Of a stretch of 64,000 bases of DNA, positions 3,296-61,636 are shown one piece after another (the stretch's first letter is position 1; each line of letters begins with the position of its first letter). This DNA comes from Candidatus Nealsonbacteria bacterium DGGOD1a (GTDB taxonomy: Bacteria; Patescibacteriota; Minisyncoccia; Minisyncoccales; UBA5738). The notes beneath the pieces are model-generated. The model did not search any database, was not told where the DNA came from, and saw nothing but the letters and a program-made list of their open reading frames with translations. The DNA lies in assembly GCA_022530585.1 (NCBI GenBank), contig CP092821.1, positions 585,525-649,524 of the forward strand, written 5' to 3'. Both the position numbers and the translations under genes were made by a program.

Positions 3296-3482
3296 GTTGG
3301 CCTAACCCTCGTAATTTAATCTGCGAGGTATGGCGTAAAAACCTGTTGAAAATACTGAACTCCACGTTCAGCAATCTTTCAACAGGTCATATCGGGAAAC
3401 CGGTATGGAGCCGCAAGGCTCAGCTGGCGTGGAGCTCTGTGTTTATGTGCGCTCTATGGCCAGCCAAAACGGCCATTTTTTG
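3296..3482 (+). ncRNA. Candidate structured RNA of unknown class (independent sRNA or cis-leader of the 3502 gene)
   Basis: Nested hairpin 3342-3386 (cctgttgaaa/tttcaacagg) encloses ctgaac-TCCAC-gttcag. There are two GNRA-capped hairpins, tatcgg-GAAA-ccggta and gagcc-GCAA-ggctc. The loop TCCACG is complementary to CGTGGAG at 3428-3434. An intrinsic terminator atggcc...ggccat+T7 lies at 3456-3482. Confidence 0.35.
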
Positions 3483-13687: not shown

Positions 13688-13895
13688 GCCGATACCCTTG
13701 AAATCAGTTTTGAAAGTCCTTAAAGAAAGGGGCTTCTTTTTTATCCGACAAAAAGGTTCGCACGCGCGGTTCCGCAAAATCGGCAATCCAACCCGCAATG
13801 TTACGGTTAAAACAACTTGCAATGAAATCCCGTATGGCACTTTTCAATCAATACTCCTCCAATCCGGTTTAAAAGAAGAGGATTTTTTTAATTAA
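13680..13895 (+). CDS. hicA: HicA mRNA interferase toxin
   Basis: MPKPIPLKSVLKVLKERGFFFIRQKGSHARFRK; the YcfA/HicA GSH motif. Confidence 0.75.
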   Translation: MPKPIPLKSVLKVLKERGFFFIRQKGSHARFRKIGNPTRNVTVKTTCNEIPYGTFQSILLQSGLKEEDFFN

Positions 13896-14010
13896 AAAAT
13901 ACATTGATGTCGGGGTATTAACCCCGCCATCGACCAAAGGATGTTTCCTTTGGAATTCTCATTCTTTTTGTTCCCCGCGGCAAGTTGACGAGGTATAAAA
14001 AGAATAAATC
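13896..14010 (-). repeat. Three-hairpin interspersed element, subfamily F1, copy A
   Basis: aaaaatacattgatgtcggggtattaaccccgccatcgaccaaaggatgtttcctttggaat.ctcattctttttgttccccgcgg..gctgacg.ggtataaaaagaataaat. The strand given is the G-U-compatible strand. Confidence 0.85.
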
Positions 14011-14255: not shown

Positions 14256-16118
14256 ATGAAATCTTTGCTTAAACAATATTTTGGCTATGATGAGTTCCGG
14301 CCTTTGCAGGAGGAGATTGTCAATCACATCATTGCGGGAAACGATGCGTTTGTTTTGATGCCCACGGGCGGGGGAAAGTCGCTTTGCTATCAACTGCCCG
14401 CGCTAAAATTCGCGGGGCTGACCTTGGTGATCTCGCCTTTGATCGCCTTAATGAAAGACCAAGTGGACGCGCTGAAAACCAACGGCGTGGACGCGGAATT
14501 CATAAATTCATCGCTGTCGCCAAAGCAAACCGCGGAAGTTTTTGGCCGCGTTAAAAGCGGCGCGGTTAAAATTTTATATGTTGCGCCGGAAAGATTTGCT
14601 TTGAGCGCCTTTCAGGAATTTTTAAAAAGCTTGAATATCAGTTTGATCGCGGTGGACGAAGCGCATTGCATTTCCGAATGGGGCCATGATTTCCGGCCCG
14701 ATTACCGCCATTTGAGCCGACTCAAAGAACTTTTCCCAACGGTACCGCTGGTGGCCCTAACCGCCACGGCCACCAAAAAAGTGCGCGAAGATATTGCCGG
14801 CCAGCTGCAATTGCGAAGCGCGCGAGTTTTTGTTTCCAGTTTCAACCGCGAAAATCTGCATCTGCGGGTGGTCGAAAAGAAACAAGCTTTTCCGAAATTG
14901 CTGAATCTTCTGCAAAATTACCGCGATGAACCGGCAATCATCTACTGTTTTTCGCGCCGGGAAACCGAAGAAATCGCCCAGGATTTGCGCGCGCACCGAT
15001 TCAAAGCCGAAGCCTACCACGCCGGATTGAGCGCCAAGGATCGCAACCGAACGCAAGAACTGTTTATTAAAGACGAGATAAGCGTGATCGTAGCCACGAT
15101 CGCTTTCGGCATGGGCATCGACAAGCCGGATGTGCGATTGGTGGTGCATTATACTTACCCCAAAACCCTTGAGGGTTACTATCAAGAAATCGGCCGCGCC
15201 GGGCGCGACGGCCTGGCCAGCGAATGCGTTTTGTTTTACACCTATGCCGATACCCGGAAACACGAATTTTTCATCAACCAAATCGAAGACGGCGACGCGC
15301 AAAAACGAGCGATGGCTAAATTGCGCGAGGTAATGAATTATGCCGAATTGAGTTCTTGCCGGAAAAAATATATTTTAAGATATTTTGGCGAAGATCTTGC
15401 GGCCGATAACTGCCAAGGATGCGATGTTTGCGTCGAGAAAAACGCGGCCAAAACAACCCCGGCGGGAAATGACCGAAACTTCGACGGCACAATTGTCGCC
15501 AAAAAGATTATTTCAGCCGTTATCCGGCTTCATGGCCGCTTCGGTAAAAATTATGCGGCCGATGTCCTGTTGGGAAAAAGAACCCAAAAGATAACGGCAA
15601 ACCGGCACAACCGGCTTTCGGTATATGGAATTGTCGGCGATTTTTCAAAAAACGAACTTCTGCAAATTATGGATCAACTGGTGAATCTGGGTTTGCTGGC
15701 AAGGAAAGAAGGGCTTTACCCGGTTTTATCGGCCACCCGGAAGGGATTGATTTTCGCGCAAGGCGGCGAACGGCTTGAATTGCGAAAATTGATTGAAAAA
15801 GAAACCGAACCCGCCAATATCCCAGAAACCAAAAAAGACAACGCCGCTTTCAATCGGGAACTGTTCGAAAAACTGCGCGCTTTGCGCAAGGAACTGGCCG
15901 ATAAAGCCGGCGTACCGCCATTTGTTGTTTTCAGCAATGTATCGCTTCAGGAAATGGCTTATTATTTGCCGCAAACCACCGACGATTTCGGCCGCATCAA
16001 CGGCGTGGGCGCAATGAAGCAGAAACAATTCGGAAAGATATTTCTTGCCGCGATAAACAAATTTGCCAAAGAAAACAATACCGGCGGAATAAAAAATACA
16101 TCGATGTCGGGGTATTAA
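14256..16118 (+). CDS. recQ: ATP-dependent DNA helicase RecQ
   Basis: [29 protein letters not shown], the zinc motif CRK...C..CDVC, and a C-terminal HRDC-like region. Confidence 0.9.
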
Positions 16119-16195
16119 CCTCGCCATCGACCAAAGGATGTTTCCTTTGGAATCCTCATTCTTTTTGTTCCCCGCGGCGAGCTGACGGGTAAAAA
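16091..16195 (-). repeat. Three-hairpin element, subfamily F1, copy B (overlaps the recQ 3' end)
   Basis: Same consensus as copy A. The last recQ codons (KNTSMSGY*) and the stop are read from the element. Confidence 0.85.
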
Positions 16196-16240
16196 AACAG
16201 CATATGAACGCGGCCGGTGGCAATCGCCATTTGCCACGGC

Positions 16241-16428: not shown

Positions 16429-17557
16429 TATTGACCTTCGCATAATAACTTGACTATAATCGCCTTTGTGGGATAATGAAGGTATATGAAAAATCGTAAA
16501 TCTTCACCATCTTGCAAAAGCAAAGATGATCTTCAGAAAAGAAGAATCAAAGCGATAAAGCTTTGGGAAAAAGGCCAAACCCAATATAAAATCGCCAAAA
16601 AACTGGGAGTCAGTTTTGAAGCGGTGAGCAATTGGGTGGAAGCATACAAAGCCCAAGGATGGGATGGCCTGAAAAGCAAAGGCAATCCCGGGCCGGATTC
16701 CAAATTGACCCAAGAGGAAAAACGCGAAATCAAAAAAGCGATCCTCAAAGGAGCGCAAAAGCAGGGATATGCCACCGATCTTTGGACGCTGGCAAGACTG
16801 CGAGATCTGATCAAAAAGATATCGGGAACAAAATATCACCCCGGCCATGTCTGGAGGGTGGTAATCTCGCTGGGTTTTACCAGCCAAAAACCCGAAATCA
16901 AAGCCAAAGAAAGAGATGAGAAAGCCATCAAAACTTGGAGAGTAAAAACCTTTCCAAGGTTAAAAAAAATGGGCGCAAAAACATCATTTTAAGCTGGGAT
17001 TCCATGATGAATCGGGAATTTCCGACCGCCCCACGGTCAGAAAAACCTGGGCGATTAAAGGCAAAACGCCGGTAATCAAATCCACCGGATCGTGGGCCGC
17101 AATGAGTTTGACGGCAACGCTGGTTTGCGCGCCGGCAGGAAGCAATCCGGCGATGTTTTTGAAAAGCAAAAAAGGAAGCGTCAAAAAAGAAGATGTGCTT
17201 GTATATTTAAAATTATTAAAATACTGGTTTAAGGGAAAAAGATTGCTTCTTTTCTGGGATGGATTGGCGGCACATCGCGCCAAGATCGTCAAAGAATATT
17301 TAAAAACTCAAAAATACTGGTTGCGAGTTGAGAGATTTCCGGCCTACGCGCCCGAGCTTAATCCCGTTGAATATTTTTGGGCGGCGATGAAAAACAAATA
17401 TGTCTGCAACTTGCGGCCGCAAGGCCTGCCCGCCCTGGGGCGGGCGGTCAAATCCGGCAAACGCAAGATCGCCGGAGACAAAGAATTAATGAAAGGATTT
17501 TTAAAGGCTTCCGAATTATATTGATATGATAGTCAATCTATTATGCGAAGGTCAATA
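16429..17557 (+). mobile_element. IS630-family insertion sequence (~1.13 kb)
   Basis: 19-bp perfect TIR: tattgaccttcgcataata at 16429-16447, and its reverse complement at 17539-17557. Encloses the transposase. Confidence 0.85.
16486..17524 (+). CDS. IS630-family DDE transposase in two frames, joined at the A8 run 16962-16969
   Basis: N-terminal HTH (QYKIAKKLGVSFEAVSNWV). The second frame reads FHDESGISDRP...LFWDGLAAHRAK...APELNPVEYFW. The join needs +1 slippage, or one A fewer. Confidence 0.8.
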
Positions 17558-19633: not shown

Positions 19634-19963
19634 TGTAAAAAAACATTAATAACGGAAATTGTTCTTGATACTTTTTTTGATACGGTAAAAACGATTCCAC
19701 TTTGCCGGCGATTTATGTCGTTATTGAACTCGAGAAATATAAATTTGGCGCCGCGGTTTCCGGTTTATGCGCCGGCGCTCGGCTCCCGCAAGATAAAAAA
19801 TATCGCCGCGGCCATCGCTATACCGTTGGAAATCGGTTTAATCGCGGGTTTGGTGATTCAATCCCTTCCTTAAATCGTGATAATTTGCAATAATGTAATC
19901 AATCGCGCCGCGACAAAATCATACGGCATAATTTTAGCAAACAATGAATACCTTGTCGCTTTA

Positions 19964-20098
19964 AAAATCAAAAATATATTTTCCAAATGTATTTCGTCGA
20001 GCGGAGTATGAACCCCGCACGACGACCAAAGGGGGCACCCCTTTGGAATCCTCTTGGTGTACCCCGGGGCAAAGCCCCGAGGTATTGCACTCAATAAA
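19964..20098 (-). repeat. Three-hairpin element, subfamily F2, copy E
   Basis: aaaaatatattttccaaatgtatttcgtcgagcgg.gtatgaaccccgcacgacgaccaaagggggcacccctttggaatcctcttggtg.accccggggcaaagccccgaggtattgcactcaataaa. Confidence 0.85.
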
Positions 20099-20121
20099 AC
20101 AAAACAATCATAATCAAAAAA

Positions 20122-27831: not shown

Positions 27832-28010
27832 CATTTTTATCAAGATTTCTTTTTTTATGGATCCGCATCAAAATATCAACATTTTTTGGTAAAATAAAGT
27901 AATAATCAAACTATCAGAATTCGCTGTTTCGCAATTCAAAGAAAATTATATTTTACAAACCAAATCGCTTAAATGGCGATTTTCTGGTAAAATAGTAGAA
28001 ATACAACAAT

Positions 28011-29776: not shown

Positions 29777-29911
29777 AAAATCAAAAATATATTTTCCAAA
29801 TGTATTTCGTCGAGCGGGGTATGAACCCCGCACGACGACCAAAGGGGGCACCCCTTTGGAATCCTCTTGGTGCACCCCGGGGCAAAGCCCTGAGGTATTG
29901 CACTCAATAAA
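29777..29911 (-). repeat. Three-hairpin element, subfamily F2, copy F
   Basis: Near-identical to copies E and H. Confidence 0.85.
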
Positions 29912-29923
29912 GAAAATAATTTA

Positions 29924-30041
29924 AATTACGAAACCATTAAATTCAAATGCCTTGAAGGGGTCTAACCCTTGCGATTATCCCTCGCAAAAGCCTCGGGACA
30001 GGCGCGAGGGATAGACCCCAAATACAAAGCGTTTCGTAATT
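29924..30041. repeat. MITE with IS982-like termini (family A), copy 1
   Basis: TIRs aattacgaaac / gtttcgtaatt enclose the hairpin ggggtctaaccc...gggatagacccc. Confidence 0.75.
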
Positions 30042-30059
30042 CAAAATAATTAAAAAAAT

Positions 30060-32170: not shown

Positions 32171-32173
32171 TGT

Positions 32174-32310
32174 TTTATTGAGTGCAATACCTCGGGGCTT
32201 TGCCCCGGGGTGCACCAAGAGGATTCCAAAGGGGTGCCCCCTTTGGTCGTCGTGCGGGGTTCATACCCCGCACGACGAAATACATTTGAAAAATATATTT
32301 TTGATTTTTT
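32174..32310 (+). repeat. Three-hairpin element, subfamily F2, copy G (opposite orientation to E, F and H)
   Basis: Reverse complement of the F2 consensus. Hairpin 3 is perfectly paired here (gtcgtgcgggg/ccccgcacgac). Confidence 0.85.
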
Positions 32311-42483: not shown

Positions 42484-42518
42484 TTTTCAATTCTCGAACT
42501 CCAATTTTCAATAAACTT

Positions 42519-42617
42519 TAAACTACGAAATGATTTGTATTTTGGGGTCTATCCCCTGTGTAATCGCAGGGGTTAGACCCCTTTAAAAGTATTTTGAATT
42601 TAATGATTTCGTAATTT
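42519..42617. repeat. MITE family A, copy 2
   Basis: aaactacgaaatg ... gatttcgtaattt flank the perfect hairpin ggggtctatcccctg-tgtaatcg-caggggttagacccc. Confidence 0.7.
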
Positions 42618-42709
42618 AAGGAATAAATATTCCAAATTCCAATAAAAATTAGTCAAAACAAAAACACCCATTAAAAGGTGTCTTTTGTTTTAATCTGAAA
42701 AGTTAAAAA

Positions 42710-47493: not shown

Positions 47494-47630
47494 AAAAATC
47501 AAAAATATATTTTCCAAATGTATTTCGTCGAGCGGGGTATGAACCCCGCACGACGACCAAAGGGGGCACCCCTTTGGAATCCTCTTGGTGCACCCCGGGG
47601 CAAAGCCCCGAGGTATTGCACTCAATAAAA
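47494..47630 (-). repeat. Three-hairpin element, subfamily F2, copy H
   Basis: Near-identical to copy F. Confidence 0.85.
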
Positions 47631-47670
47631 AAATGGCGCGCCAAACGCTGTTTTTTGTTATAATAAAATC

Positions 47671-50703: not shown

Positions 50704-50715
50704 ATATAAAAACAA

Positions 50716-50829
50716 AAAAATACATTGATGTCGGGGTATTAACCCCGCCATCAACCAAAGGATGTTTCCCTTGACATCCTCATTCTTTTTGTTCCCCGCG
50801 GCGAGCTGACGGGGTATAAAAAGAATCAA
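50716..50829 (-). repeat. Three-hairpin element, subfamily F1, copy D
   Basis: Matches the F1 consensus, 12 nt after the carboxypeptidase stop. Confidence 0.85.
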
Positions 50830-50883
50830 TCGCCGAAAAGGTGATTTTTTGATATAATGCAATTATTATTGATCCAAAAAAAC

Positions 50884-51472: not shown

Positions 51473-53050
51473 ATGAAAACTAAAAAATTACCGCCTAAAA
51501 CTGAAAATAAGCCGCTAGAAAGCTGGATTTGGGACGCGGCTTGCGCTATTCGCGGGGCTAAAGATGCCGGAAAGTTCAAGGATTACATTTTACCGCTTAT
51601 TTTTGTTAAGCGGCTTTGCGATGTATTTGACGATGAGGTAAATAAAATCGCCAAAGCCACCGGGTCGCGCAAGGAGGCGCTCAAACGCATTGATGCCGAT
51701 CATTCGCGGGTGCGTTTCTATTTACCGATTCGCGCCAAAGACCCAAAAACCCAGGATACTTGGAGTGTAATCCGTTCGCTTTCAAATAATATCGGAGAAG
51801 AACTAACACGGATCATTCGGGAAATCGCGAGCAATAATTCGGCCCTTGATGGCGTGATTGATTCAGTTGACTACAACGCCACCACTCGAGGCCAGCGGGA
51901 GATTGACGACGACCGGCTTTCCAACCTGATTGAAGCAATCAGCCAAAAACGGCTTGGATTGGCGGATGTGGAACCGGATATCATTGGCCGGAGTTATGAA
52001 TATCTGATTCGCAAATTTGCCGAAGGTTCCGGGCAGTCGGCGGGCGAATTTTACACCCCGCGGGAAGTGGGAATGGTGATGGCAAACATTATGGACCCGG
52101 AACCGGGAATGGAAATTTATGATTGCGCCTGCGGATCGGCCGGACTGCTCATCAAATGCGAATTGGCGCTCAAGGAGAAAATGGATAAACTCGGAAAAAA
52201 GATATTCGCGCCCCTGCGTTTATATGGCCAAGAGAATATCAGCTCCACTTGGGCAATGGCCAAGATGAACATGGTGATCCACGATATGGAAGGTGAAATA
52301 GAACTGGGTGATACTTTTAATAATCCAAAATTCAAAGATGCGAGCGGAAAAGGCATAAAAAAATTTAATCGCTGCGTGGCAAACCCGATGTGGAACCAGC
52401 CGGGATTTAACGAAGAAATCTATACCAATGACATTTATGGCCGGTTTCCGGCGGGCAATCCGGGCGGGAAAGGCGACTGGGGCTGGGTTCAACATATTTA
52501 TTCAAGCTTAAACGATAACGGTCGGGCCGCAATCGTGCTTGATACCGGCGGGGCATCACGTGGCAGCGGCAACGCCAACACCAATAAAGAAAAGGATGTG
52601 CGCAAGTGGTTCATTGACCACGATATTATTGAAGGAGTTTTGTATTTGCCCGAAAACCTGTTTTATAACACCACCGCCCCGGGAATTATTATTTTCCTGA
52701 ATAAAAGCAAACCGGCCAATCTCAAGGATAAAGTATTTTTGATCAATGCCAGCAAAGAATTCAAAAAAGGCGATCCCAAAAATTATCTTGGCGACGATCA
52801 AATCAAAAAAATTTCCCAAACATTTAATTCAAAAAAGGAAACTGAAAATTTCAGCAAATTTATCGGCAGAGATGAAATTGCCAAAAACGACTACAATATT
52901 TCACCCTCGCGCTACATCAACCTCGGCGGAACAGAGGAATATAAGCCGGTAGAAGAAATTTTAAGCGAACTGGCGATAGTTGAAGCCAAAGCAAAGGAAG
53001 CGGATAAAAACTTGAAGAAAGTTTTAAAAGACTTTGGATTTAATAAATAA
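51473..53050 (+). CDS. hsdM: Type I restriction-modification system, methyltransferase subunit
   Basis: N-terminal HsdM domain. SAM motif DCACGSAGLL. Catalytic ANPMW (NPPF/W-type). Confidence 0.9.
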   Translation: MKTKKLPPKTENKPLESWIWDAACAIRGAKDAGKFKDYILPLIFVKRLCDVFDDEVNKIAKATGSRKEALKRIDADHSRVRFYLPIRAKDPKTQDTWSVIRSLSNNIGEELTRIIREIASNNSALDGVIDSVDYNATTRGQREIDDDRLSNLIEAISQKRLGLADVEPDIIGRSYEYLIRKFAEGSGQSAGEFYTPREVGMVMANIMDPEPGMEIYDCACGSAGLLIKCELALKEKMDKLGKKIFAPLRLYGQENISSTWAMAKMNMVIHDMEGEIELGDTFNNPKFKDASGKGIKKFNRCVANPMWNQPGFNEEIYTNDIYGRFPAGNPGGKGDWGWVQHIYSSLNDNGRAAIVLDTGGASRGSGNANTNKEKDVRKWFIDHDIIEGVLYLPENLFYNTTAPGIIIFLNKSKPANLKDKVFLINASKEFKKGDPKNYLGDDQIKKISQTFNSKKETENFSKFIGRDEIAKNDYNISPSRYINLGGTEEYKPVEEILSELAIVEAKAKEADKNLKKVLKDFGFNK

Positions 53051-53051
53051 A

Positions 53052-53681
53052 ATGCTGGTATTTATTGATGAATCAGGAGATCCGGGTTTAAAAATTGACA
53101 AGGGATCAAGCAGATTTTTTGTTATCGGCCTTGTAATTTTTGAAGATAACGATGAGGCGGCGGCGTGCGACCAAAGAATTGAATTATTGAAACGCGAACT
53201 TGGAAAGCAACCATCAGATGAGTTTCATTTTAAAACCAACCTAAACAGGGTTAAAGAAACTTTCTTGAAAGCAGTTTCACCATATAATTTTTTTTATTAT
53301 GGGATTGTTATCAATAAAGATCCGAAAAAGTTATATGGGGAGGGATTTAAAAATAAAGAATCGTTTTATAAATATGCCTGCGGATTGGTTTTTGAAAACG
53401 CCAAAGAAAAACTGCGCAATTCCATTATAATAATCGATAAAAGCGGTAATCTTGATTTTAGAAACCAACTCGGAAAATATCTGCGAAGAAAAATGAACGG
53501 CAAGGATCGAATCATTAAAAAGATAAAAATGCAGCGATCAGAAAGCAACAATTTGCTTCAACTTGCCGATTATATTGCTGGAGTCATTTACCGTTCGGTG
53601 AGGAATGAAAGAAAAAAGGCGGATGATTATCGCAAGATAATTGCACACCGCGAGATATATGTTCAAATATGGCCGAAATAA
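53052..53681 (+). CDS. DUF3800-domain protein embedded between hsdM and hsdS
   Basis: MLVFIDESGDPG...EFHF signature. ATG lies 1 nt after the hsdM stop. Confidence 0.7.
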   Translation: MLVFIDESGDPGLKIDKGSSRFFVIGLVIFEDNDEAAACDQRIELLKRELGKQPSDEFHFKTNLNRVKETFLKAVSPYNFFYYGIVINKDPKKLYGEGFKNKESFYKYACGLVFENAKEKLRNSIIIIDKSGNLDFRNQLGKYLRRKMNGKDRIIKKIKMQRSESNNLLQLADYIAGVIYRSVRNERKKADDYRKIIAHREIYVQIWPK

Positions 53682-53825
53682 TGTCTATAAACGAAAAAAC
53701 TCCCAAGCCTATTCCTTTCGGAAACGCGGCGATAAACGCCACAATTTGGCCTGGAAGCGATTCCAATTTCAGCATAACCGCTATGCTGGTAATGTCAAGT
53801 ATAATCATCCACAGTTAAATTCCCT

Positions 53826-54992
53826 ATGAAAACCAAAAATCAAACAAAAAAAGAATGGGAAATAATTTCTTTTCAAAATTGTTTAGAGAGGGTGATAATC
53901 GGCAGAGATAGGCAAATTAAGGAAAGGGATTATTTGAAATCGGGAAGTTATCCTATTGTTGATCAAGGCAAGTCAAAAATTGCTGGATTTACAAATGACA
54001 AAAATAAAGTAATTTCCGAAATTCAGCCTTTCGTTATTTTTGGCGATCATACGCGAATTATAAAATATATAGACTTTTTAATTGCTTTAGGGGCAGACGG
54101 AACGAAAATTATAAAACCAAATAGTCAATTTGATCCTAAATTTTTTTACTACCAACTTCTAAATATCAATATCCCAAGTAAAGGCTACAATCGCCATTAT
54201 TCAATTTTGAAAGAAAAGAGATTGTCTGTACCAAGTATTTTCGAACAGAAAGTTGTTGCTAATATACTGACAACGGTGCAGGAGGCGATTGCAGGGCAAG
54301 AGAAGTTGATTGCCAAGCTCAAAGAATTGAAACAGAGCATGATGCAATTCCTTTTTACGCACGGCACGAAAGGCGAAAAAACCAAAATGACCGAAATTGG
54401 CGAGATTCCTGATAGTTGGGCAACAAATAAGATAAGAAAATTTGGTAAAATTGTTACTGGAAATACACCGTCGACAAAAAAATTTGAATATTATGGCGAG
54501 CCCTATAAATTAGTATCGCCGGCGGATTTAACAGATGCTTTATTTATCGACACCGCGCATCGTAAAATTACAAAAGAGGGTCTAATGGTTGCGCGATCGG
54601 TACCTAAAAATTCGTTATTGGTTGGTTGCATTGGCAATGTAGGAAAAATTGGAATAACCCAGGATGAAATAACGGCATTTAATCAGCAAATAAATGCAAT
54701 TGCAGTTAACGATGATTTTAATTATTTATTCGTTTACTATCTTTTGATTTTTTATCGTGAAATTCTTGAAAGTAAATCAGCAAAGGTTACACTTCCAATT
54801 TTGAATAAATCCAATTTTGAAGAAATAGAATTTTATACGCCCGATATCGTAGAACAAGAAAAAATCGCTGATATTTTATATTCAATTGATAAAAAAATTG
54901 AAACTATTCAAAATAGATTATCCGCTTATCAGAATCTTTTTAAAACCCTTCTCCACGAACTAATGAGCGGCGACCGGAAGGTAAATTTTTAA
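53826..54992 (+). CDS. hsdS: Type I R-M specificity subunit
   Basis: Two target-recognition domains separated by a conserved helical spacer (EQKVVANILTTVQEAI...; EQEKIADILYSIDKKIE...LLHELMSG). Confidence 0.85.
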   Translation: MKTKNQTKKEWEIISFQNCLERVIIGRDRQIKERDYLKSGSYPIVDQGKSKIAGFTNDKNKVISEIQPFVIFGDHTRIIKYIDFLIALGADGTKIIKPNSQFDPKFFYYQLLNINIPSKGYNRHYSILKEKRLSVPSIFEQKVVANILTTVQEAIAGQEKLIAKLKELKQSMMQFLFTHGTKGEKTKMTEIGEIPDSWATNKIRKFGKIVTGNTPSTKKFEYYGEPYKLVSPADLTDALFIDTAHRKITKEGLMVARSVPKNSLLVGCIGNVGKIGITQDEITAFNQQINAIAVNDDFNYLFVYYLLIFYREILESKSAKVTLPILNKSNFEEIEFYTPDIVEQEKIADILYSIDKKIETIQNRLSAYQNLFKTLLHELMSGDRKVNF

Positions 54993-54996
54993 ATTT

Positions 54997-55992
54997 ATGG
55001 CAAATATAATCCCGAAATCAATCGATAATTTAATTGATCAATCAATAAATCCTTTAGCAAGGGGGTTTGTTCAGTTTGTATTGCTAAAGCTCGGCTTAAG
55101 CGAGGAAATAATGAAAGTAAAAAATGTTGTTGCGGCTGAAAAAGTAAGCCGAAGGTGGCAGATAGAAGCCCCGAAATGGATTTTAATGGAAGCAAAAAAA
55201 TTAGAGCGTCAATATGATAATCTCGGTAAGGTTATGATTAAAAGCGCAGGGATGATCACTGCAACGGAAAGCAAAATAACTGAAGATAATGATGTATTTT
55301 GGGGCCTACTCGAACATTCCAAAGAAGTATCTAATGAACAAATGCAGGATTTGATATCAAGAATTATTGCTGGAGAGTACAATAATCCAGGTACTTATTC
55401 AATGAGTACATTGCAAGTTTTAAGAAGCTTAGGTAAAAATGAACTTGCATTATTTGAAAGAATCGGAAGCCTGTTAATTGGGAAAAGGCATTTACCGATG
55501 ATTCTTTTTACGGGAAATCAACCAGCCAGTAAAATAGTTGATCTTATAAAAATTGATTTTGAAGACTTGCAAAAACTACAAGGTCTAAATATTTTTTTGC
55601 CAAACAGTATGACTCAAACACTACAAAATCCTGAAAAAAAGAAGATATTGATACAATATTTTGATAAAAATTTTTTTTACGAGTTGGTAAACGGGAACAT
55701 TGATGCTTCCGCTCTATTCCCTAGTTTTTATGGACTAACGATTGCCGGAAAACAAATACTCAATCATCTTTCTCCAAAATATATTGACGATTATTATGTA
55801 TGGATTAAAGAAAATTACTTTGAATTACGAAACCCGCTTTTAAAGAAAAACGATTGCGAAACAAAAACCTGCCCGCGTCGCGGGGTTTGGCGGAAAACAT
55901 TCGATTGCGGTAAGTTTTTTCACGGTTCACAACTAAATAATTTGATAAGCCAGCAGACTGTAGATATAATTGGACAAATATCCGTCCACTGA
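54997..55992 (+). pseudogene. DUF2806-like gene whose 3' end is interrupted by IS982 at 55818
   Basis: WGLLEHSKEVSNEQMQDLISRIIAGEYNNPGTYSMSTLQVL resembles DUF2806 (recalled). The last ~58 codons of the track ORF are read-through into the IS. The native frame resumes at 56829 and stops at TGA 56866-56868. Confidence 0.6.
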
Positions 55993-56821
55993 TTTGGGGA
56001 GGCTGGTAATCAGCCCGTAGAACATTTTCAAATTGCGAAAATTCAATTCAATGATCATTCTGGTATCATATAATTTTTTCTGGAATTGAGTGATGATTTT
56101 TTTCATGTTGTTTCTGGCTTTCACCAGCAAAATTCTTTTGCGGGCGCGGTGGAATTTTCTTTGCAATTTCTCGGAAACATATCCGGCGTCGGCAATGAAC
56201 ACGCCGTTCAATTTCTTGGATAATTTGATAACGACATCGCGGTCGTCAACATTCGCGGAAGTGAATTTGATGGCCAGTATTTGCCTTTTGAAATCCGCGA
56301 TCAGGTGCATTTTTAAGCCGAAATAGGTACCTTTTGCGCTTCTGCCGAAACTGGCGAACATTTTCATCACTTTGTGTTTGTTGGCATTTTTGAACAAACA
56401 AACGGGGATATCGGTGGAATCAATGTGTTTGATAATGTGTTGGTTTTTCCTGCTCATCCTCATGATAATAAACATTAATCGCAATGCCAGAATTGCCCAA
56501 CGATTGATGCTCATGACCAATGTTTTGTAGGAGCAGATTTTGTGAAGATTGAAAATGGTGAATAATGATTTTTTGGTAGCGATACCGCCGGCTTGTTTGA
56601 ATATCGCCAGCGATAAGACTGTGATTATCGGCAACGCCAATTTTCGACCGGTTTTGTTTGTGAGCTTGTCAATTTTTAATTGTTGTGAAAAAATACTTAC
56701 CACCTTCCTGATTTCGTTGTAAAATGGAATTACAACTTTCATGTTGGTGTTGAGTCGGCGGTTTACCAGTCGCCGGCTCTGGTGTCATTTTAGCATTTTT
56801 TAGGAGTTTCGTAATTCAAAG
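55818..56821 (-). mobile_element. IS982-family insertion sequence (1004 bp) with a 7-bp target-site duplication
   Basis: 16-bp perfect TIR: ctttgaattacgaaac at 55818-55833 and gtttcgtaattcaaag at 56806-56821. TSD aaaatta at 55811-55817 and 56822-56828. Confidence 0.85.
55933..56742 (-). CDS. IS982-family DDE transposase
   Basis: IDSTDIPVC, GLKMHL, FIADAGYVS. Confidence 0.75.
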   Translation of the reverse strand: MKVVIPFYNEIRKVVSIFSQQLKIDKLTNKTGRKLALPIITVLSLAIFKQAGGIATKKSLFTIFNLHKICSYKTLVMSINRWAILALRLMFIIMRMSRKNQHIIKHIDSTDIPVCLFKNANKHKVMKMFASFGRSAKGTYFGLKMHLIADFKRQILAIKFTSANVDDRDVVIKLSKKLNGVFIADAGYVSEKLQRKFHRARKRILLVKARNNMKKIITQFQKKLYDTRMIIELNFRNLKMFYGLITSLPKSVDGYLSNYIYSLLAYQII

Positions 56822-56864
56822 AAAATTATAAAATTACGAATTACAAACTAGCCGAAATTAATAT

Positions 56865-59807
56865 ATGAAACCTACGGAGTCAAAATCAGTGCAGGAACGG
56901 ATAATTAAATACGCCACGGAAATTGGATGGAAATATGTTGGTCGCGATGAAAGCGATACTCGACGATCCGCCGTCGATGATACTATTTCAAACAAAGGCG
57001 ATGATGCATATAAAAAACAACCATATTATTTGGAAGTTTTGATGCCGAAGTTGCGGGAGTTTAATCCTTGGTTGGCGGAAAATTTTAGTTTGCCGGTGAT
57101 ATTGCCCAGAATTGAAGGTAATCGGCAGATGCTTTTGGCATTGCGGGGGCAAAGCACGGCTTATGATGAAAATGAAAAGCGGGAACGGAATGTGACGGTG
57201 ATTGATTTTGAAAATTGGGAACGGAATGTGTTTGAGGTGACAGATGAATTTTCATTTTCCAATGGCCGTTATGGAAACCGGCAGGATATTGTGTTTTTGA
57301 TCAATGGGATCCCAGTGATTGTTTTGGAATGCAAGAATCTGACCACGACCGAGGGGATTGATAAAGCGCTGGACCAGATCCGGCGCTACCATCACGAAAC
57401 GCCCGAACTATTGGCTCTGGAGCAAGGTTTTGTTGCCAGCGAAGGAATGCGACTTGAATATGGCGTAACTTGGGATACGGAACGGCGCAATATCTTTGTT
57501 TGGAAGGGCCAGCCTTCGCCAAAGGCTACGGCCTGGCACAGCAACAAGGGCGGCGCGGATAATTTGGAATATAAAATCAAAACATTTTTCAACATAGAGC
57601 ATATTTTAAACATTATCGAGAAATACATAATGTTTATTGAGAAGGATGAAACACTCTCCAAAATCATTTTGCGGGAGCATCAGGCGAATGCCGTGGAGGC
57701 AGTGTTAAAACGAGCATTAGGCGAGGAAAAAGCGCACGGGTTGATCTGGCACACCCAGGGATCAGGCAAGACATTTACAATGATCAAAACTGCCGAGCTT
57801 TTATTTAAATCAAGCGCCGCGGATAAGCCAACGGTAATAATGATGCTGGATCGAAACGAGTTGGAGGGGCAAATGGAGGGTAATTTAACTGCCGCGGGGA
57901 TTAAAAATGTTCGCAAAGCGGGGAGCATCAGCGATTTGGTTGATATTTTACACTCTGATTACCGCGGAATTGTTATTACCATGATCCACAAATTCCGGGG
58001 ATTACCGGCAAATTTGAATACTCGGAAAAACATTTTTGTTTTAATCGATGAGGCGCATCGCACTACCGGCAGCGATTTGGGAACCTTTATGATGGCGGCT
58101 ATGCCCAAGGCCACATTTATCGGTTATACCGGCACACCAATTGATAAAACTCAATACGGGAGAGGAACATTCAAAACTTTCGGTATTGATGATGCCAAAG
58201 GATATCTACATAAATACAGCATCAGTGAAAGTATTGAAGACGGAACAACTCTGCCGCTTTATTATTCATTGGCGCCCAATGAAATGCTGGTTCCCAAGGA
58301 AACCCTTGAACGGGAATTTTTGAATTTGGCCGAAAAGCACGGGATTACCGATATTGAGGAGTTAAACGCGATATTGGAGCGAGCGGTGAATACGAGAAAC
58401 TTCCTAAAAGGTCAAGGACGCATTGAAAAAGTGGGTAAGTTTATTGCCGACCATTTCAAGCAATATATCGAACCGATGAACTACAAGGCGTTTGTGGTAG
58501 CGGTAGATAGGGAAGCCTGCGCCTTATACAAGCAAGAGCTGGATAAATATCTTCCCAAAGAATGGAGCGAAGTGGTTTATACCGGCAATAACAACGATTC
58601 CAGACTGTTAAAGGAATTTACCCTCGACGAAGATAAAGAAAAGGAAGTTAGGCGTGATTTCACCAGATTCGGCGCTAATCCAAAGATTTTAATCGTTACC
58701 GAAAAACTTTTAACCGGATACGACGCCCCAATTCTGTATTGCATGTATTTGGATAAGCCAATGCGCGATCATGCGTTATTGCAAACCATTGCCCGCGTTA
58801 ATCGGCCCTATGAAAATGAAACGATGAAGATGGTAAAGCCGCACGGATTTATTTTGGATTTCGTGGGTATTTTTGACAAACTGGAGAAAGCGCTCTCGTT
58901 TGACAGCGATGAAATTAACGCGATTATTAAAGATTTATCTCTGCTTAAAACCCAATTCGTGAAAAAGCTGGACGAGGACACTAAGCAGTATTTTGATTTG
59001 CTAACAGGGCCGTTCAATGACCGAATGGCAGGTGTCTTAATTGAGCATTTCCGAGATGAAGAAAAACGGAAGGCGTTTTTCAAGCTCTACAACGAAATCG
59101 AAATGATTTACGAAATAATTTCGCCTGATCCTTTCCTGCGGCAATATCTTGATCAATACACTACCTTGGCAAGCATGTATCAGATTGTCCGCAACGCATT
59201 TGCAAAACAAGTCCGATATGATACCGAATTTCTAAAAAAGACTGCCGGCCTTGTACGCGAACAAATACAAAGCAGCCCGGTTAAGCTTGGGACGGAATTA
59301 ATAAAACTTGACGAGAAGGGGATTGAGATCATAAAGGGAAAGAATCAGCCCGATGAAGTAAAAATTATCAACCTCATAAAGACTATTCAGCGGTTGGCCG
59401 AAGAAAAATCCGGCGATCCGGTGCTAATTTCGGTCAAAGAGCGGGCCGAAGACATCATGGATGCCTATACAAGCCGCCAAGTGACCACGCAAGAGGCTTT
59501 AAAGCAGCTGTTGGAATTAGCCGAAGGCGAAGCGGAGCGCAGCGAAAAACAACAAAAAGAAGGTATTTCCAGCGTCGCCTGGTTTATCCGCGATGTTTTG
59601 GCTAGCGAGAAAATCGTGGATATGGAAGCGGTTAAGGATTTGGAATCAATAACCGGCGGCTATCCGGAATTTGCCAAAAGCGAAAAACTGACCCGGGATT
59701 TGAGAAATGATTTATACAGCCGGCTGGAATCATTGGGCTTATCTCTTGTTGACCAGAAAAAAATTACTGCTGCGATCATTGAAACAATCGCAAGAACTTG
59801 TCAATGA
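56865..59807 (+). CDS. hsdR: Type I restriction enzyme, R (endonuclease/helicase) subunit
   Basis: N-terminal nuclease core DIVFLINGIPVIVLECK. Helicase motifs HTQGSGKT and DEAHR. 980 aa. Confidence 0.9.
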   Translation: MKPTESKSVQERIIKYATEIGWKYVGRDESDTRRSAVDDTISNKGDDAYKKQPYYLEVLMPKLREFNPWLAENFSLPVILPRIEGNRQMLLALRGQSTAYDENEKRERNVTVIDFENWERNVFEVTDEFSFSNGRYGNRQDIVFLINGIPVIVLECKNLTTTEGIDKALDQIRRYHHETPELLALEQGFVASEGMRLEYGVTWDTERRNIFVWKGQPSPKATAWHSNKGGADNLEYKIKTFFNIEHILNIIEKYIMFIEKDETLSKIILREHQANAVEAVLKRALGEEKAHGLIWHTQGSGKTFTMIKTAELLFKSSAADKPTVIMMLDRNELEGQMEGNLTAAGIKNVRKAGSISDLVDILHSDYRGIVITMIHKFRGLPANLNTRKNIFVLIDEAHRTTGSDLGTFMMAAMPKATFIGYTGTPIDKTQYGRGTFKTFGIDDAKGYLHKYSISESIEDGTTLPLYYSLAPNEMLVPKETLEREFLNLAEKHGITDIEELNAILERAVNTRNFLKGQGRIEKVGKFIADHFKQYIEPMNYKAFVVAVDREACALYKQELDKYLPKEWSEVVYTGNNNDSRLLKEFTLDEDKEKEVRRDFTRFGANPKILIVTEKLLTGYDAPILYCMYLDKPMRDHALLQTIARVNRPYENETMKMVKPHGFILDFVGIFDKLEKALSFDSDEINAIIKDLSLLKTQFVKKLDEDTKQYFDLLTGPFNDRMAGVLIEHFRDEEKRKAFFKLYNEIEMIYEIISPDPFLRQYLDQYTTLASMYQIVRNAFAKQVRYDTEFLKKTAGLVREQIQSSPVKLGTELIKLDEKGIEIIKGKNQPDEVKIINLIKTIQRLAEEKSGDPVLISVKERAEDIMDAYTSRQVTTQEALKQLLELAEGEAERSEKQQKEGISSVAWFIRDVLASEKIVDMEAVKDLESITGGYPEFAKSEKLTRDLRNDLYSRLESLGLSLVDQKKITAAIIETIARTCQ

Positions 59808-60127
59808 CAAAGGAACCAGTAAAAACTTGGGAATCGAAGCGGGAATTTAAGGAAGAGGTCTATTTGAACGCCGATAAATTCAAGGTGAAAGTGAAACAGA
59901 TCACCGTTAGACCAATGACCCGCAAATGGGCAAGCTGTTCCACTAATGGTTATTTTACCTTCAACGCGGAGTTGCTCGGAATGGACCGCACCCTTGGCCA
60001 GTATGTAATCGTACACGAGATATTGCACTATCACATCCCAAACCACGGCAAGCTCTGGAAAAGCTTAATGAAAACCCACTTAGGCGATTACAAGGAATTT
60101 GAAGATAAGTTAAGGCAATTATCCTAA
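59798..60127 (+). CDS. YgjP-like (DUF45/SprT-like) zinc metallopeptidase
   Basis: HEILHYHIPNHG HExxH motif. Overlaps the hsdR stop by 10 nt. Confidence 0.7.
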   Translation: MSMTKEPVKTWESKREFKEEVYLNADKFKVKVKQITVRPMTRKWASCSTNGYFTFNAELLGMDRTLGQYVIVHEILHYHIPNHGKLWKSLMKTHLGDYKEFEDKLRQLS

Positions 60128-61536: not shown

Positions 61537-61564
61537 AAACAAGCGAAAAATGGCGAATAACTTT

Positions 61565-61589
61565 GGATTACGAAACGCTTTGCATTTTG
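61565..61589. repeat. Solo IS982/MITE-A terminus
   Basis: ggattacgaaacgctttgcattttg matches the reverse complement of 30017-30041. The preceding ctttggattacgaaac differs by 1 nt from the IS982 TIR. Confidence 0.6.
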
Positions 61590-61636
61590 AATCTAACGGT
61601 TCCGCAATTCAAGATAATTAAAACAATTAAAAAAAT

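Follow-up and report, generated by a model that had tools for sequence, protein, structure and literature searches.

The Type I restriction-modification (R-M) operon of Candidatus Nealsonbacteria DGGOD1a carries an insertion sequence (IS) of 1004 bp, related to the IS982 family, in the DUF2806 gene that directly precedes hsdR. The locus lies in a 64,000-nucleotide stretch of contig CP092821.1 (hereafter the window) from a genome assembled as one closed contig of 1,159,797 bp, and the operon is read on the plus strand in the order hsdM-DUF3800-hsdS-DUF2806-hsdR. Taken as a whole, the locus is very likely explained by insertion of the IS into DUF2806, with a probable uncoupling and weakening of hsdR expression and a probable impairment of the DUF2806 protein.

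Anatomy of the insertion and reconstruction of the DUF2806-hsdR junction

The insertion and the gene that it interrupts comprise the following features, with the evidence in brackets (TIR, terminal inverted repeat; TSD, target site duplication; ORF, open reading frame).

55818..56821, minus strand (transposase antisense to the hsd operon): IS982-like insertion sequence, 1004 bp (TIRs, TSD, homologous elements, other copies)
55818..55833, plus strand: left TIR CTTTGAATTACGAAAC, the end distal to the transposase start (sequence reading, repeat search)
56806..56821, minus strand: right TIR, the left one in exact reverse complement, at the end near the transposase start (sequence reading, repeat search)
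55811..55817, no strand: left TSD copy, AAAATTA (native DUF2806 coding sequence)
56822..56828, no strand: right TSD copy, AAAATTA (sequence reading, repeat search)
55933..56742, minus strand: transposase, 269 aa, UMX47424.1 (PF13612, E = 1.6e-30; PF01609; NCBIfam IS982, 124.4 bits)
55872..55884, minus strand: terminator-like GC hairpin followed by a T-run, 3' of the transposase stop (sequence scan)
56752..56779, no strand: 10-bp GC-rich hairpin in the 5' leader of the transposase gene (z = -2.7 for 56726-56880)
54997..55992, plus strand: present DUF2806 ORF, 331 aa, UMX47423.1 (residues 1-274 native, 275-331 from the IS)
56829..56868, plus strand: orphaned native 3' end of DUF2806 (third base of codon Y274, then KITNYKLAEINI, then TGA)

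The TIRs are perfect over 16 bp, and the single long ORF between them encodes an intact transposase of the DDE type. Only two perfect 16-bp inverted pairs at IS-like spacing were found in the window, this IS included; the second bounds an unrelated IS630-like element. In an empirical null derived from the window, identity of 7-mer flanks at a spacing of about 1 kb occurs with a frequency of 1.6e-4, and a chance origin of the TIR/TSD pattern is excluded. The repeat search also returns an 11-nt direct repeat, AAAGAAAATTA, at the flanks of the IS. The repeat reads 11 nt and not 7, with an extra AAAG, because the right TIR ends in ...CAAAG, and a 1011-bp deletion gives the identical product wherever its boundary is placed inside the 11 nt.

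Joining 54997-55817 to 56829-56868 yields an in-frame DUF2806 protein of 286 aa that ends in ...WIKENYKITNYKLAEINI, and the pre-insertion (empty) junction reads GGATTAAAGAAAATTATAAAATTACG. The left TSD copy spans the last two bases of codon E272, the whole of N273 and the first two bases of Y274. At the other end of the rebuilt gene, its TGA (56866-56868) overlaps the hsdR ATG (56865-56867) in an ATGA, a 4-nt overlap. In the present allele the DUF2806 ORF extends 175 nt inside the IS to a stop at 55992, and the insertion swaps the 12 native C-terminal residues (KITNYKLAEINI) for 57 IS-encoded ones.

A protein search with the rebuilt DUF2806 returned 239 relatives, mostly 282-290 aa long. Their alignment showed that the homologues end in ...W[LI]KxNYKIxNYKLxE, a pattern that the rebuilt tail fits. 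The sequence for the second half of this tail, KITNYKLAE, lies beyond the IS, and the IS-fused protein departs from the family directly after N-Y; the nearly invariant Y279 is among the residues lost. Because the rebuilt tail restores the conserved DUF2806 C-terminus, the 7 bp repeated at the ends are native coding sequence that was truly duplicated. The ancestral junction is rebuilt to the exact nucleotide and is validated independently by the homologues. We also considered that AAAATTA might belong to the element and not be a TSD. This was rejected, as the outer flanks differ among the copies and the left copy encodes the conserved K-E-N-Y.

An earlier note on this DNA, made from the letters alone, had described a real IS with perfect 16-bp TIRs and the 7-bp TSD AAAATTA, a junction that could be rebuilt to the nucleotide, a native TGA overlapping the hsdR ATG, and a DUF2806 protein that had been truncated and re-tailed. 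Direct sequence reading and the 12 far-side residues bear out this description. For the ATGA coupling to hsdR there was no orthologous operon to compare with, the four DUF2806 homologue contexts that we examined all being different. UMX47423.1, the "DUF2806 protein" of 331 aa in the annotation, is in fact a fusion with IS sequence. The locus serves as a tidy example of an insertion for which homologues can prove the ancestral state.

Assembly support and age of the insertion

All samples come from one enrichment culture lineage begun in 1995, among them IMG 3300001389, the original OR metagenome sequenced in 2010, and IMG 3300019861, which is DGG-1A from 2016 (PMC10190668). Every available assembly of this lineage with coverage of the site has the IS allele. 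In six independent assemblies the sequence continues from one or both flanks into the IS; flank identity is 100% in L001-L005, and L006, a 454 contig, shows homopolymer errors. Contigs of IMG 3300019861, IMG 3300001389 and Logan SRR35881275 match the window at 100% identity and break 54-202 nt inside the IS. The left junction, with homopolymer errors, is carried by a 454-era contig of IMG 2020627003; one contig of IMG 3300028916, 149 kb long, runs completely through hsdR, IS and DUF2806, and the IS allele is also present in IMG 3300040744. At the assembly level, the insertion has been fixed for at least 6 years.

An assembly artefact, in which a repeat was mis-joined into the operon of the closed genome, could be suspected from two short contigs (L037 and L038, described below) that combine flanks of different IS sites, as would be expected if assemblers mis-join through the repeat. 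Both junctions are, however, 100% identical in independent assemblies, and a mis-join would not give a clean 7-bp TSD together with an in-frame reconstruction. With the independent junctions and the contig that spans the site, we regard this explanation as refuted, and its probability as practically nil.

The earlier note had taken the perfect TIRs and TSD as signs of a young event or of a polymorphism in the population, and this part of it is not supported. Short-read contigs that break inside the IS would also be expected from mixed alleles, but the breaks are explained by the multiple copies of the IS. Each of IMG 2020627003, 3300001389 (2010), 3300019861 (2016), 3300028916, 3300040744 and SRR35881275 has the IS allele; an exact 40-mer of the empty junction had 0 matches in JGI metagenome contigs, and the intact 286-aa DUF2806 allele was not found in a collection of 15 billion proteins, where the best non-self match is 54% identical. 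The copy in the window differs from the other copies at 5-17 of 1004 positions, thus by at least 5 from every one of them, although these differences rest partly on the short-read consensus of a repeat, which is unreliable. Because of this divergence, intact TIRs and TSD do not date the insertion: they show a lack of decay, not youth. A very recent insertion, or one that still segregates in the population, is improbable.

Possible consequences for expression of hsdR

The remaining genes of the operon are the following.

51473..53050, plus strand: hsdM, 525 aa (N6_Mtase, 298 bits, and HsdM_N)
53052..53681, plus strand: DUF3800 accessory gene inside the operon (PADLOC PDC-M04A, a candidate system, E = 5.8e-11)
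53826..54992, plus strand: hsdS, 388 aa, with two target-recognition domains (two Methylase_S stretches)
56865..59807, plus strand: hsdR, 980 aa, full length (TIGR00348; Pfam HSDR_N, SWI2_SNF2 and T1R_D3; PADLOC REase_I)

The operon is tightly packed: spacing is 1 nt between hsdM and DUF3800, 144 nt between DUF3800 and hsdS, and 4 nt between hsdS and DUF2806. The product of hsdM scores 195.5 on its equivalog model, under the cut-off of 242.75. HsdR reaches 471 bits on TIGR00348 (cut-off 284.55) and covers profile positions 3-666 of 674, as well as positions 10-949 of 1029 of PADLOC REase_I; according to these profile matches, the N-terminal nuclease domain and the superfamily 2 (SF2) motor are both present. 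Judged by their profiles, hsdM, hsdS and hsdR are all intact in sequence, in support of the earlier note, by which methylation could remain intact. Restriction is nowhere mentioned in the published description of DGGOD1a (bioRxiv 10.1101/2022.04.20.488981), and PacBio reads exist for the culture. Neither proteomic nor transcript data are given in the Nealsonbacteria preprint, and the OR proteome paper, which lists DGGOD1a proteins at low abundance only, does not mention restriction either.

The IS transposed into a TAATTTT/AAAATTA target within codons 272-274 of the DUF2806 gene and placed 1 kb of oppositely transcribed DNA in front of hsdR. The hsdR start is now 43 nt from the transposase-proximal end of the IS, the transposase gene is convergent with the operon, and the fused DUF2806 ORF stops 872 nt upstream of hsdR (55993-56864 untranslated). 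Transcription of hsdR would now depend either on a promoter in the IS end or next to it, or on read-through across the IS, over the 872 untranslated nt that run against the transposase gene and include the GC hairpin. In favor of polarity, this long untranslated stretch is antisense to the transposase gene, the 10-bp GC hairpin (56752-56779, plus strand) lies in the path of any hsdR-bound transcript, and any native promoter within the DUF2806 gene is now 1 kb more distant. The net effect would be a weaker, uncoupled expression of hsdR with hsdM and hsdS untouched, that is, a state of low restriction with methylation retained (r-low, m+); the DUF2806 protein, a relative of the abortive infection (Abi)-like Belisama, would be impaired as well. 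Compared with donation of a promoter by the IS, reduced and uncoupled hsdR expression is the more likely outcome, and we hold it with slightly better than even confidence. Lowered restriction, which the earlier note had suggested, is a plausible inference.

Several observations weigh against a simple lowering of restriction. A Shine-Dalgarno (SD) core (GGAG, GAGG or AGGA) is found within 25 nt upstream in only 3 of the 50 longest ORFs of the window, and the A/T-rich hsdR leader resembles the leaders of other genes. As initiation is mostly SD-independent, hsdR translation need not suffer from loss of the ATGA stop-start coupling. On its plus strand the IS has no canonical intrinsic terminator, only a weak non-canonical candidate, and hsdR itself shows no decay. 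IS982-family elements are also known to activate downstream genes (PMC7335449), and our promoter scan found two promoter-like plus-strand sites inside the IS that read toward hsdR; 6 of 11 distant homologues have a similar site in a comparable place.

56666-56694, plus strand: promoter-like site TTGTCA-17-AAAAAT (promoter scan)
56697-56725, plus strand: promoter-like site TTACCA-17-TAAAAT (promoter scan)

These sites bring in the competing possibility that the IS, at its transposase-proximal end, provides hsdR with a promoter, either outward-facing or hybrid, in which case restriction would be maintained or deregulated relative to methylation. The precedents are ISAba825, ISAba4, ISAba9, ISAba47 and IS1187, which supply promoters to downstream genes (PMC7335449). 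In addition to the orientation of the two sites and their partial conservation, the start of another gene, directed outward, lies 27 nt from the same IS end at a second location of the IS (site B, L034), and hsdR has stayed intact over at least 6 years with the IS. The promoter-like matches are, however, not above shuffled expectation (10 vs 7.7 ± 2.4). Both sites also lie within the transposase coding sequence, so that their partial conservation may reflect coding constraint, and the 10-bp GC hairpin followed by a T-rich stretch stands between them and hsdR. We regard promoter donation as a serious rival, though less likely than not.

Some further observations concern the operon and its surroundings. 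Among the 50 longest ORFs of the window, many are preceded by a TATAAT or TAAAAT-like box at a distance of 7-20 nt from the ATG. This points to initiation without SD sites in DGGOD1a, perhaps on transcripts with a short leader or none. The GC content of the DUF3800-hsdS-DUF2806 segment (53000-55800) is 32-37%, against 45-50% in hsdM (51500-52500) and 41-46% in hsdR (57000-59800), a contrast that may stem from horizontal exchange of the central part of the operon. An Rfam DUF3800-IX RNA motif (53695-53758, minus strand, 50.7 bits for a gathering score of 36.8) sits in the 144-nt gap between DUF3800 and hsdS, on the strand opposite to the operon. Overlapping the hsdR stop, a gene for 109 aa (59798-60127) matches positions 112-206 of 207 only of a YgjP-like metallopeptidase model and may be a truncated or short form.

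DUF2806 as a defence-type gene

The DUF2806 domain (PF10987) was detected at residues 67-267 with 64.6-65.3 bits, against a gathering score of 24.5. In Vibrio, a DUF2806 protein constitutes the anti-phage cassette "Belisama", for which homology to Abi-alpha was reported (bioRxiv 10.1101/2024.07.02.601686). The homologues found here stand in varied contexts: they adjoin a type II R-M pair (L007), lie within a type IIG/ISP-like R-M operon (L008-L010), accompany an SLFN-type helicase and a MazG-like gene (L046), or are placed among GIY-YIG and SNase genes (L044). Given these contexts, we favor the view that the gene is an independent Abi-like accessory that has its place within the hsd locus.

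The relevant target of the insertion might accordingly be DUF2806 itself, with loss of the C-terminal motif disabling a potentially toxic Abi-like protein and the effect on hsdR being incidental. The conserved KIxNYKLxE tail, including Y279, is indeed removed, and both the Belisama precedent and the stand-alone occurrence of homologues in different defence contexts speak for it. Against it, the Pfam domain is untouched by the insertion and the tail may not be needed, no PADLOC model matched the DUF2806 protein of the window, and the site fits the AT-rich target preference of the IS (TAATT...), so that selection is unnecessary. We find it rather unlikely that DUF2806 was the target that mattered. 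Within the explanation that we prefer, in which hsdR is uncoupled, the insertion may still have impaired DUF2806 function.

A divergent IS982-like clade in Patescibacteria

The best NCBIfam model for the transposase is IS982 with 124.4 bits, followed by IS5 with 51 bits. The curated IS982 model, NF033520, has a cut-off of 130 bits, and the transposase falls below it. Relatives of the same Patescibacteria clade score 116-128 bits on this model, compared with 240-256 bits for two annotated IS982 transposases. Annotated IS982 transposases on plasmids share 27-31% identity with our query over 88-99% of its length; 18 of the 25 plasmid matches listed are annotated, all as "IS982 family transposase", and the remainder are unannotated or "hypothetical protein". 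Alignments with clade members and with the two annotated IS982 transposases showed that D108, D185, E232 and K239 are invariant and that the DDE triad is kept.

Ends of the IS982 family typically read 5'-AC(N)6T(N)5TT, and 57 of 69 members begin with AC (PMC7335449). The present TIR starts CTTTGAATTACGAAAC, and C[CT]TTGAAT in relatives, an A before the TIR being found only as part of a T-N5-A-like target. The size of about 1 kb with one transposase ORF (1004 bp, 269 aa) is that of the family, and the target repeats vary in length as in IS982, with 7 bp here and in five homologous insertions and 6 bp in some.

Relatives of the transposase in GTDB genomes are almost all from Patescibacteria, with hosts among Saccharibacteria, Falkowbacteria, Howlettbacteria, Kuenenbacteria, Moraniibacteriota, Daviesbacteria and others. 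Both ends are present in 12 loci, and in each the element, 977-1014 bp long, is bounded by the same terminal sequence C[TC]TTGAATTACGAAA[CT], with transposases that are only 48-63% identical; across such elements in other Patescibacteria MAGs the identity is 48-83%. In all, the TIR bounds homologous elements in more than 10 other Patescibacteria genomes, mostly with TSDs of 7 bp. Five loci have clean 7-bp TSDs: TCCTAAA, TATCAGA, TACTATA, TTAGGGA and TAATTTT, the last being that of the window. The common ends in these elements fix the boundaries of the IS independently of the window. On these alignments we assign the element as IS982-like, with IS982 as its nearest family and its own place in a divergent clade largely confined to Patescibacteria. 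The name IS982 given in the earlier note therefore stands as the nearest family, but not as plain membership, with a score below the curated threshold and ends without AC. NCBI labels UMX47424.1 only as "transposase", and the clade is annotated only generically because it lies just below the curated family threshold.

Other copies, MITE-like derivatives and target preference

Three transposase variants from DGGOD1a, the one of the window and two more, fall in the same 90% cluster. The genome has at least 4 further copies of the IS. Those at 98.3-99.5% identity include site B, close to yafQ and cysS and without a TSD, site C, with the TSD TTATTG, and L039. A more diverged copy, L033, is 92% identical. 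Elements that resemble miniature inverted-repeat transposable elements (MITEs) and a solo end complete the set in the window.

29919-30046, intergenic: MITE-like element, 128 bp (inverted repeats matching the IS TIR)
42516-42621, intergenic: MITE-like element, 106 bp (inverted repeats matching the IS TIR; AATAAA duplication)
61561-61614, intergenic: MITE-like element, 54 bp (inverted repeats matching the IS TIR)
27926-27941: solo IS end (outer flank AAAATTAT, the same as at the hsdR IS)

The inverted repeats of the MITE-like elements match the IS TIR with 1-3 mismatches, and the motif has 9 matches in the window against 1.4 expected. The nearly invariant ends CTTTGAATTACGAAAC are common to the three MITE-like elements, and those at 29919 and 42516 share an internal GGGGTCTA(A/T)CCC hairpin sequence in opposite orientation. 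The outer flank common to 27926 and to the hsdR IS suggests a target preference of the TAATT type, and the site in DUF2806 fits an AT-rich preference of this kind. The IS982-like clade, coherent and widespread in Patescibacteria, is represented among the many "transposases" of DGGOD1a, together with its small, non-autonomous, MITE-like derivatives.

The 9-mer AATTACGAA, which is the TIR core, also occurs at 56832-56840, within native DUF2806 coding sequence and 10 nt beyond the right end of the IS; outside the TIRs it is found only twice in the 64 kb. Targeting of inverted repeats through this 9-mer was rejected, as 15 other insertion sites have no inverted-repeat-like flank beyond the null distribution, and its position beside the IS is probably due to chance. 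The short contigs L037 (IMG 3300040744) and L038 (IMG 2061766000) join the left flank of site B to foreign right flanks, which come from site A (the DUF2806 side) or site C. They are either assembler mis-joins through the repeat or products of real IS-IS recombination in subpopulations.

Selection and significance

The structural explanation given above is compatible with a neutral history, which differs from it only on whether a phenotype was selected. The IS would have entered a preferred AT-rich target and been fixed by drift or a bottleneck in the small population of an IS-rich episymbiont, kept in one culture since 1995. The genome contains 39 transposases, or 3.4% of its genes (bioRxiv 10.1101/2022.04.20.488981), among which the IS has several copies and MITE-like derivatives; all samples are from the single culture lineage, the target resembles other insertion flanks, and nothing speaks directly against neutrality. 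We give it serious weight, somewhat short of an even chance.

At the other extreme, the clade could act as an adaptive switch specific to Patescibacteria, with self-methylation kept, restriction lowered and the Abi-like DUF2806 guard disabled, and possibly as a general regulator of defence operons. If true, such a switch would ease the uptake of foreign or host DNA by an obligate Methanothrix episymbiont that is unable to make nucleotides. We rate this scenario as a long shot. The event itself is ordinary, an IS entering a defence operon in a reduced genome rich in IS elements. It is of use for annotation, and the general understanding of IS elements and of R-M systems is unchanged.

Other features of the window

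The second, unrelated IS of the window (16429-17557) has a perfect 19-bp TIR, TATTGACCTTCGCATAATA. Its two ORFs encode helix-turn-helix domains (16486-16992) and DDE_3 (17102-17524), and it is an IS630/Tc1-like element, probably frameshifted. An Rfam LOOT RNA was matched over its full length at 3299-3421 (plus strand, 89 bits). Dispersed repeats were also found. One of about 141 bp, 98% identical, is located at 19963-20103, 29777-29917, 32173-32309 (reverse complement) and about 47494-47634, one copy directly adjoining the MITE-like element at 29919. Another of about 117 bp, 92% identical, is present at 13894-14010, 16091-16197 and about 50715-50831.

Comparison with known systems

With the IS982 family (ISfinder; PMC7335449) the element shares a length of about 1 kb, a single DDE transposase ORF, short TIRs and an end-to-end alignment of the transposase, and its 7-bp direct repeat has the size listed for the family member IS1187 (PMC7335449). 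It differs by its identity of only 27-31%, by a clade that stays under the cut-off and by a TIR that begins CTTTGAAT and not AC(N)6T(N)5TT.

As with the promoter-donating ISAba825, ISAba4 or ISAba9 (blaOXA) and IS1187 (cfiA), an IS982-type element lies here tens of bp upstream of an intact gene. In those cases activation is experimental and the gene otherwise silent, whereas hsdR had been served by an operon.

Accessory defence genes embedded in hsd loci are known, for example prrC in the EcoprrI locus. The DUF2806 gene is similar in being a non-R-M gene with an Abi-like domain between hsd genes, and its homologues adjoin R-M systems elsewhere. It is linked to the Type I enzyme by gene position, and PADLOC gives no match for it.

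Inactivation of hsdR by an IS or a point mutation leads to r- m+ Type I strains, such as the hsdR mutants of laboratory E. coli K-12. In DGGOD1a, as in these mutants, hsdM and hsdS are intact and hsdR expression is at risk. The hsdR coding sequence is untouched, in contrast to these mutants, the lesion being upstream, and the phenotype may be partial or absent; seen against such strains, the Type I system of DGGOD1a may be r-low/m+.

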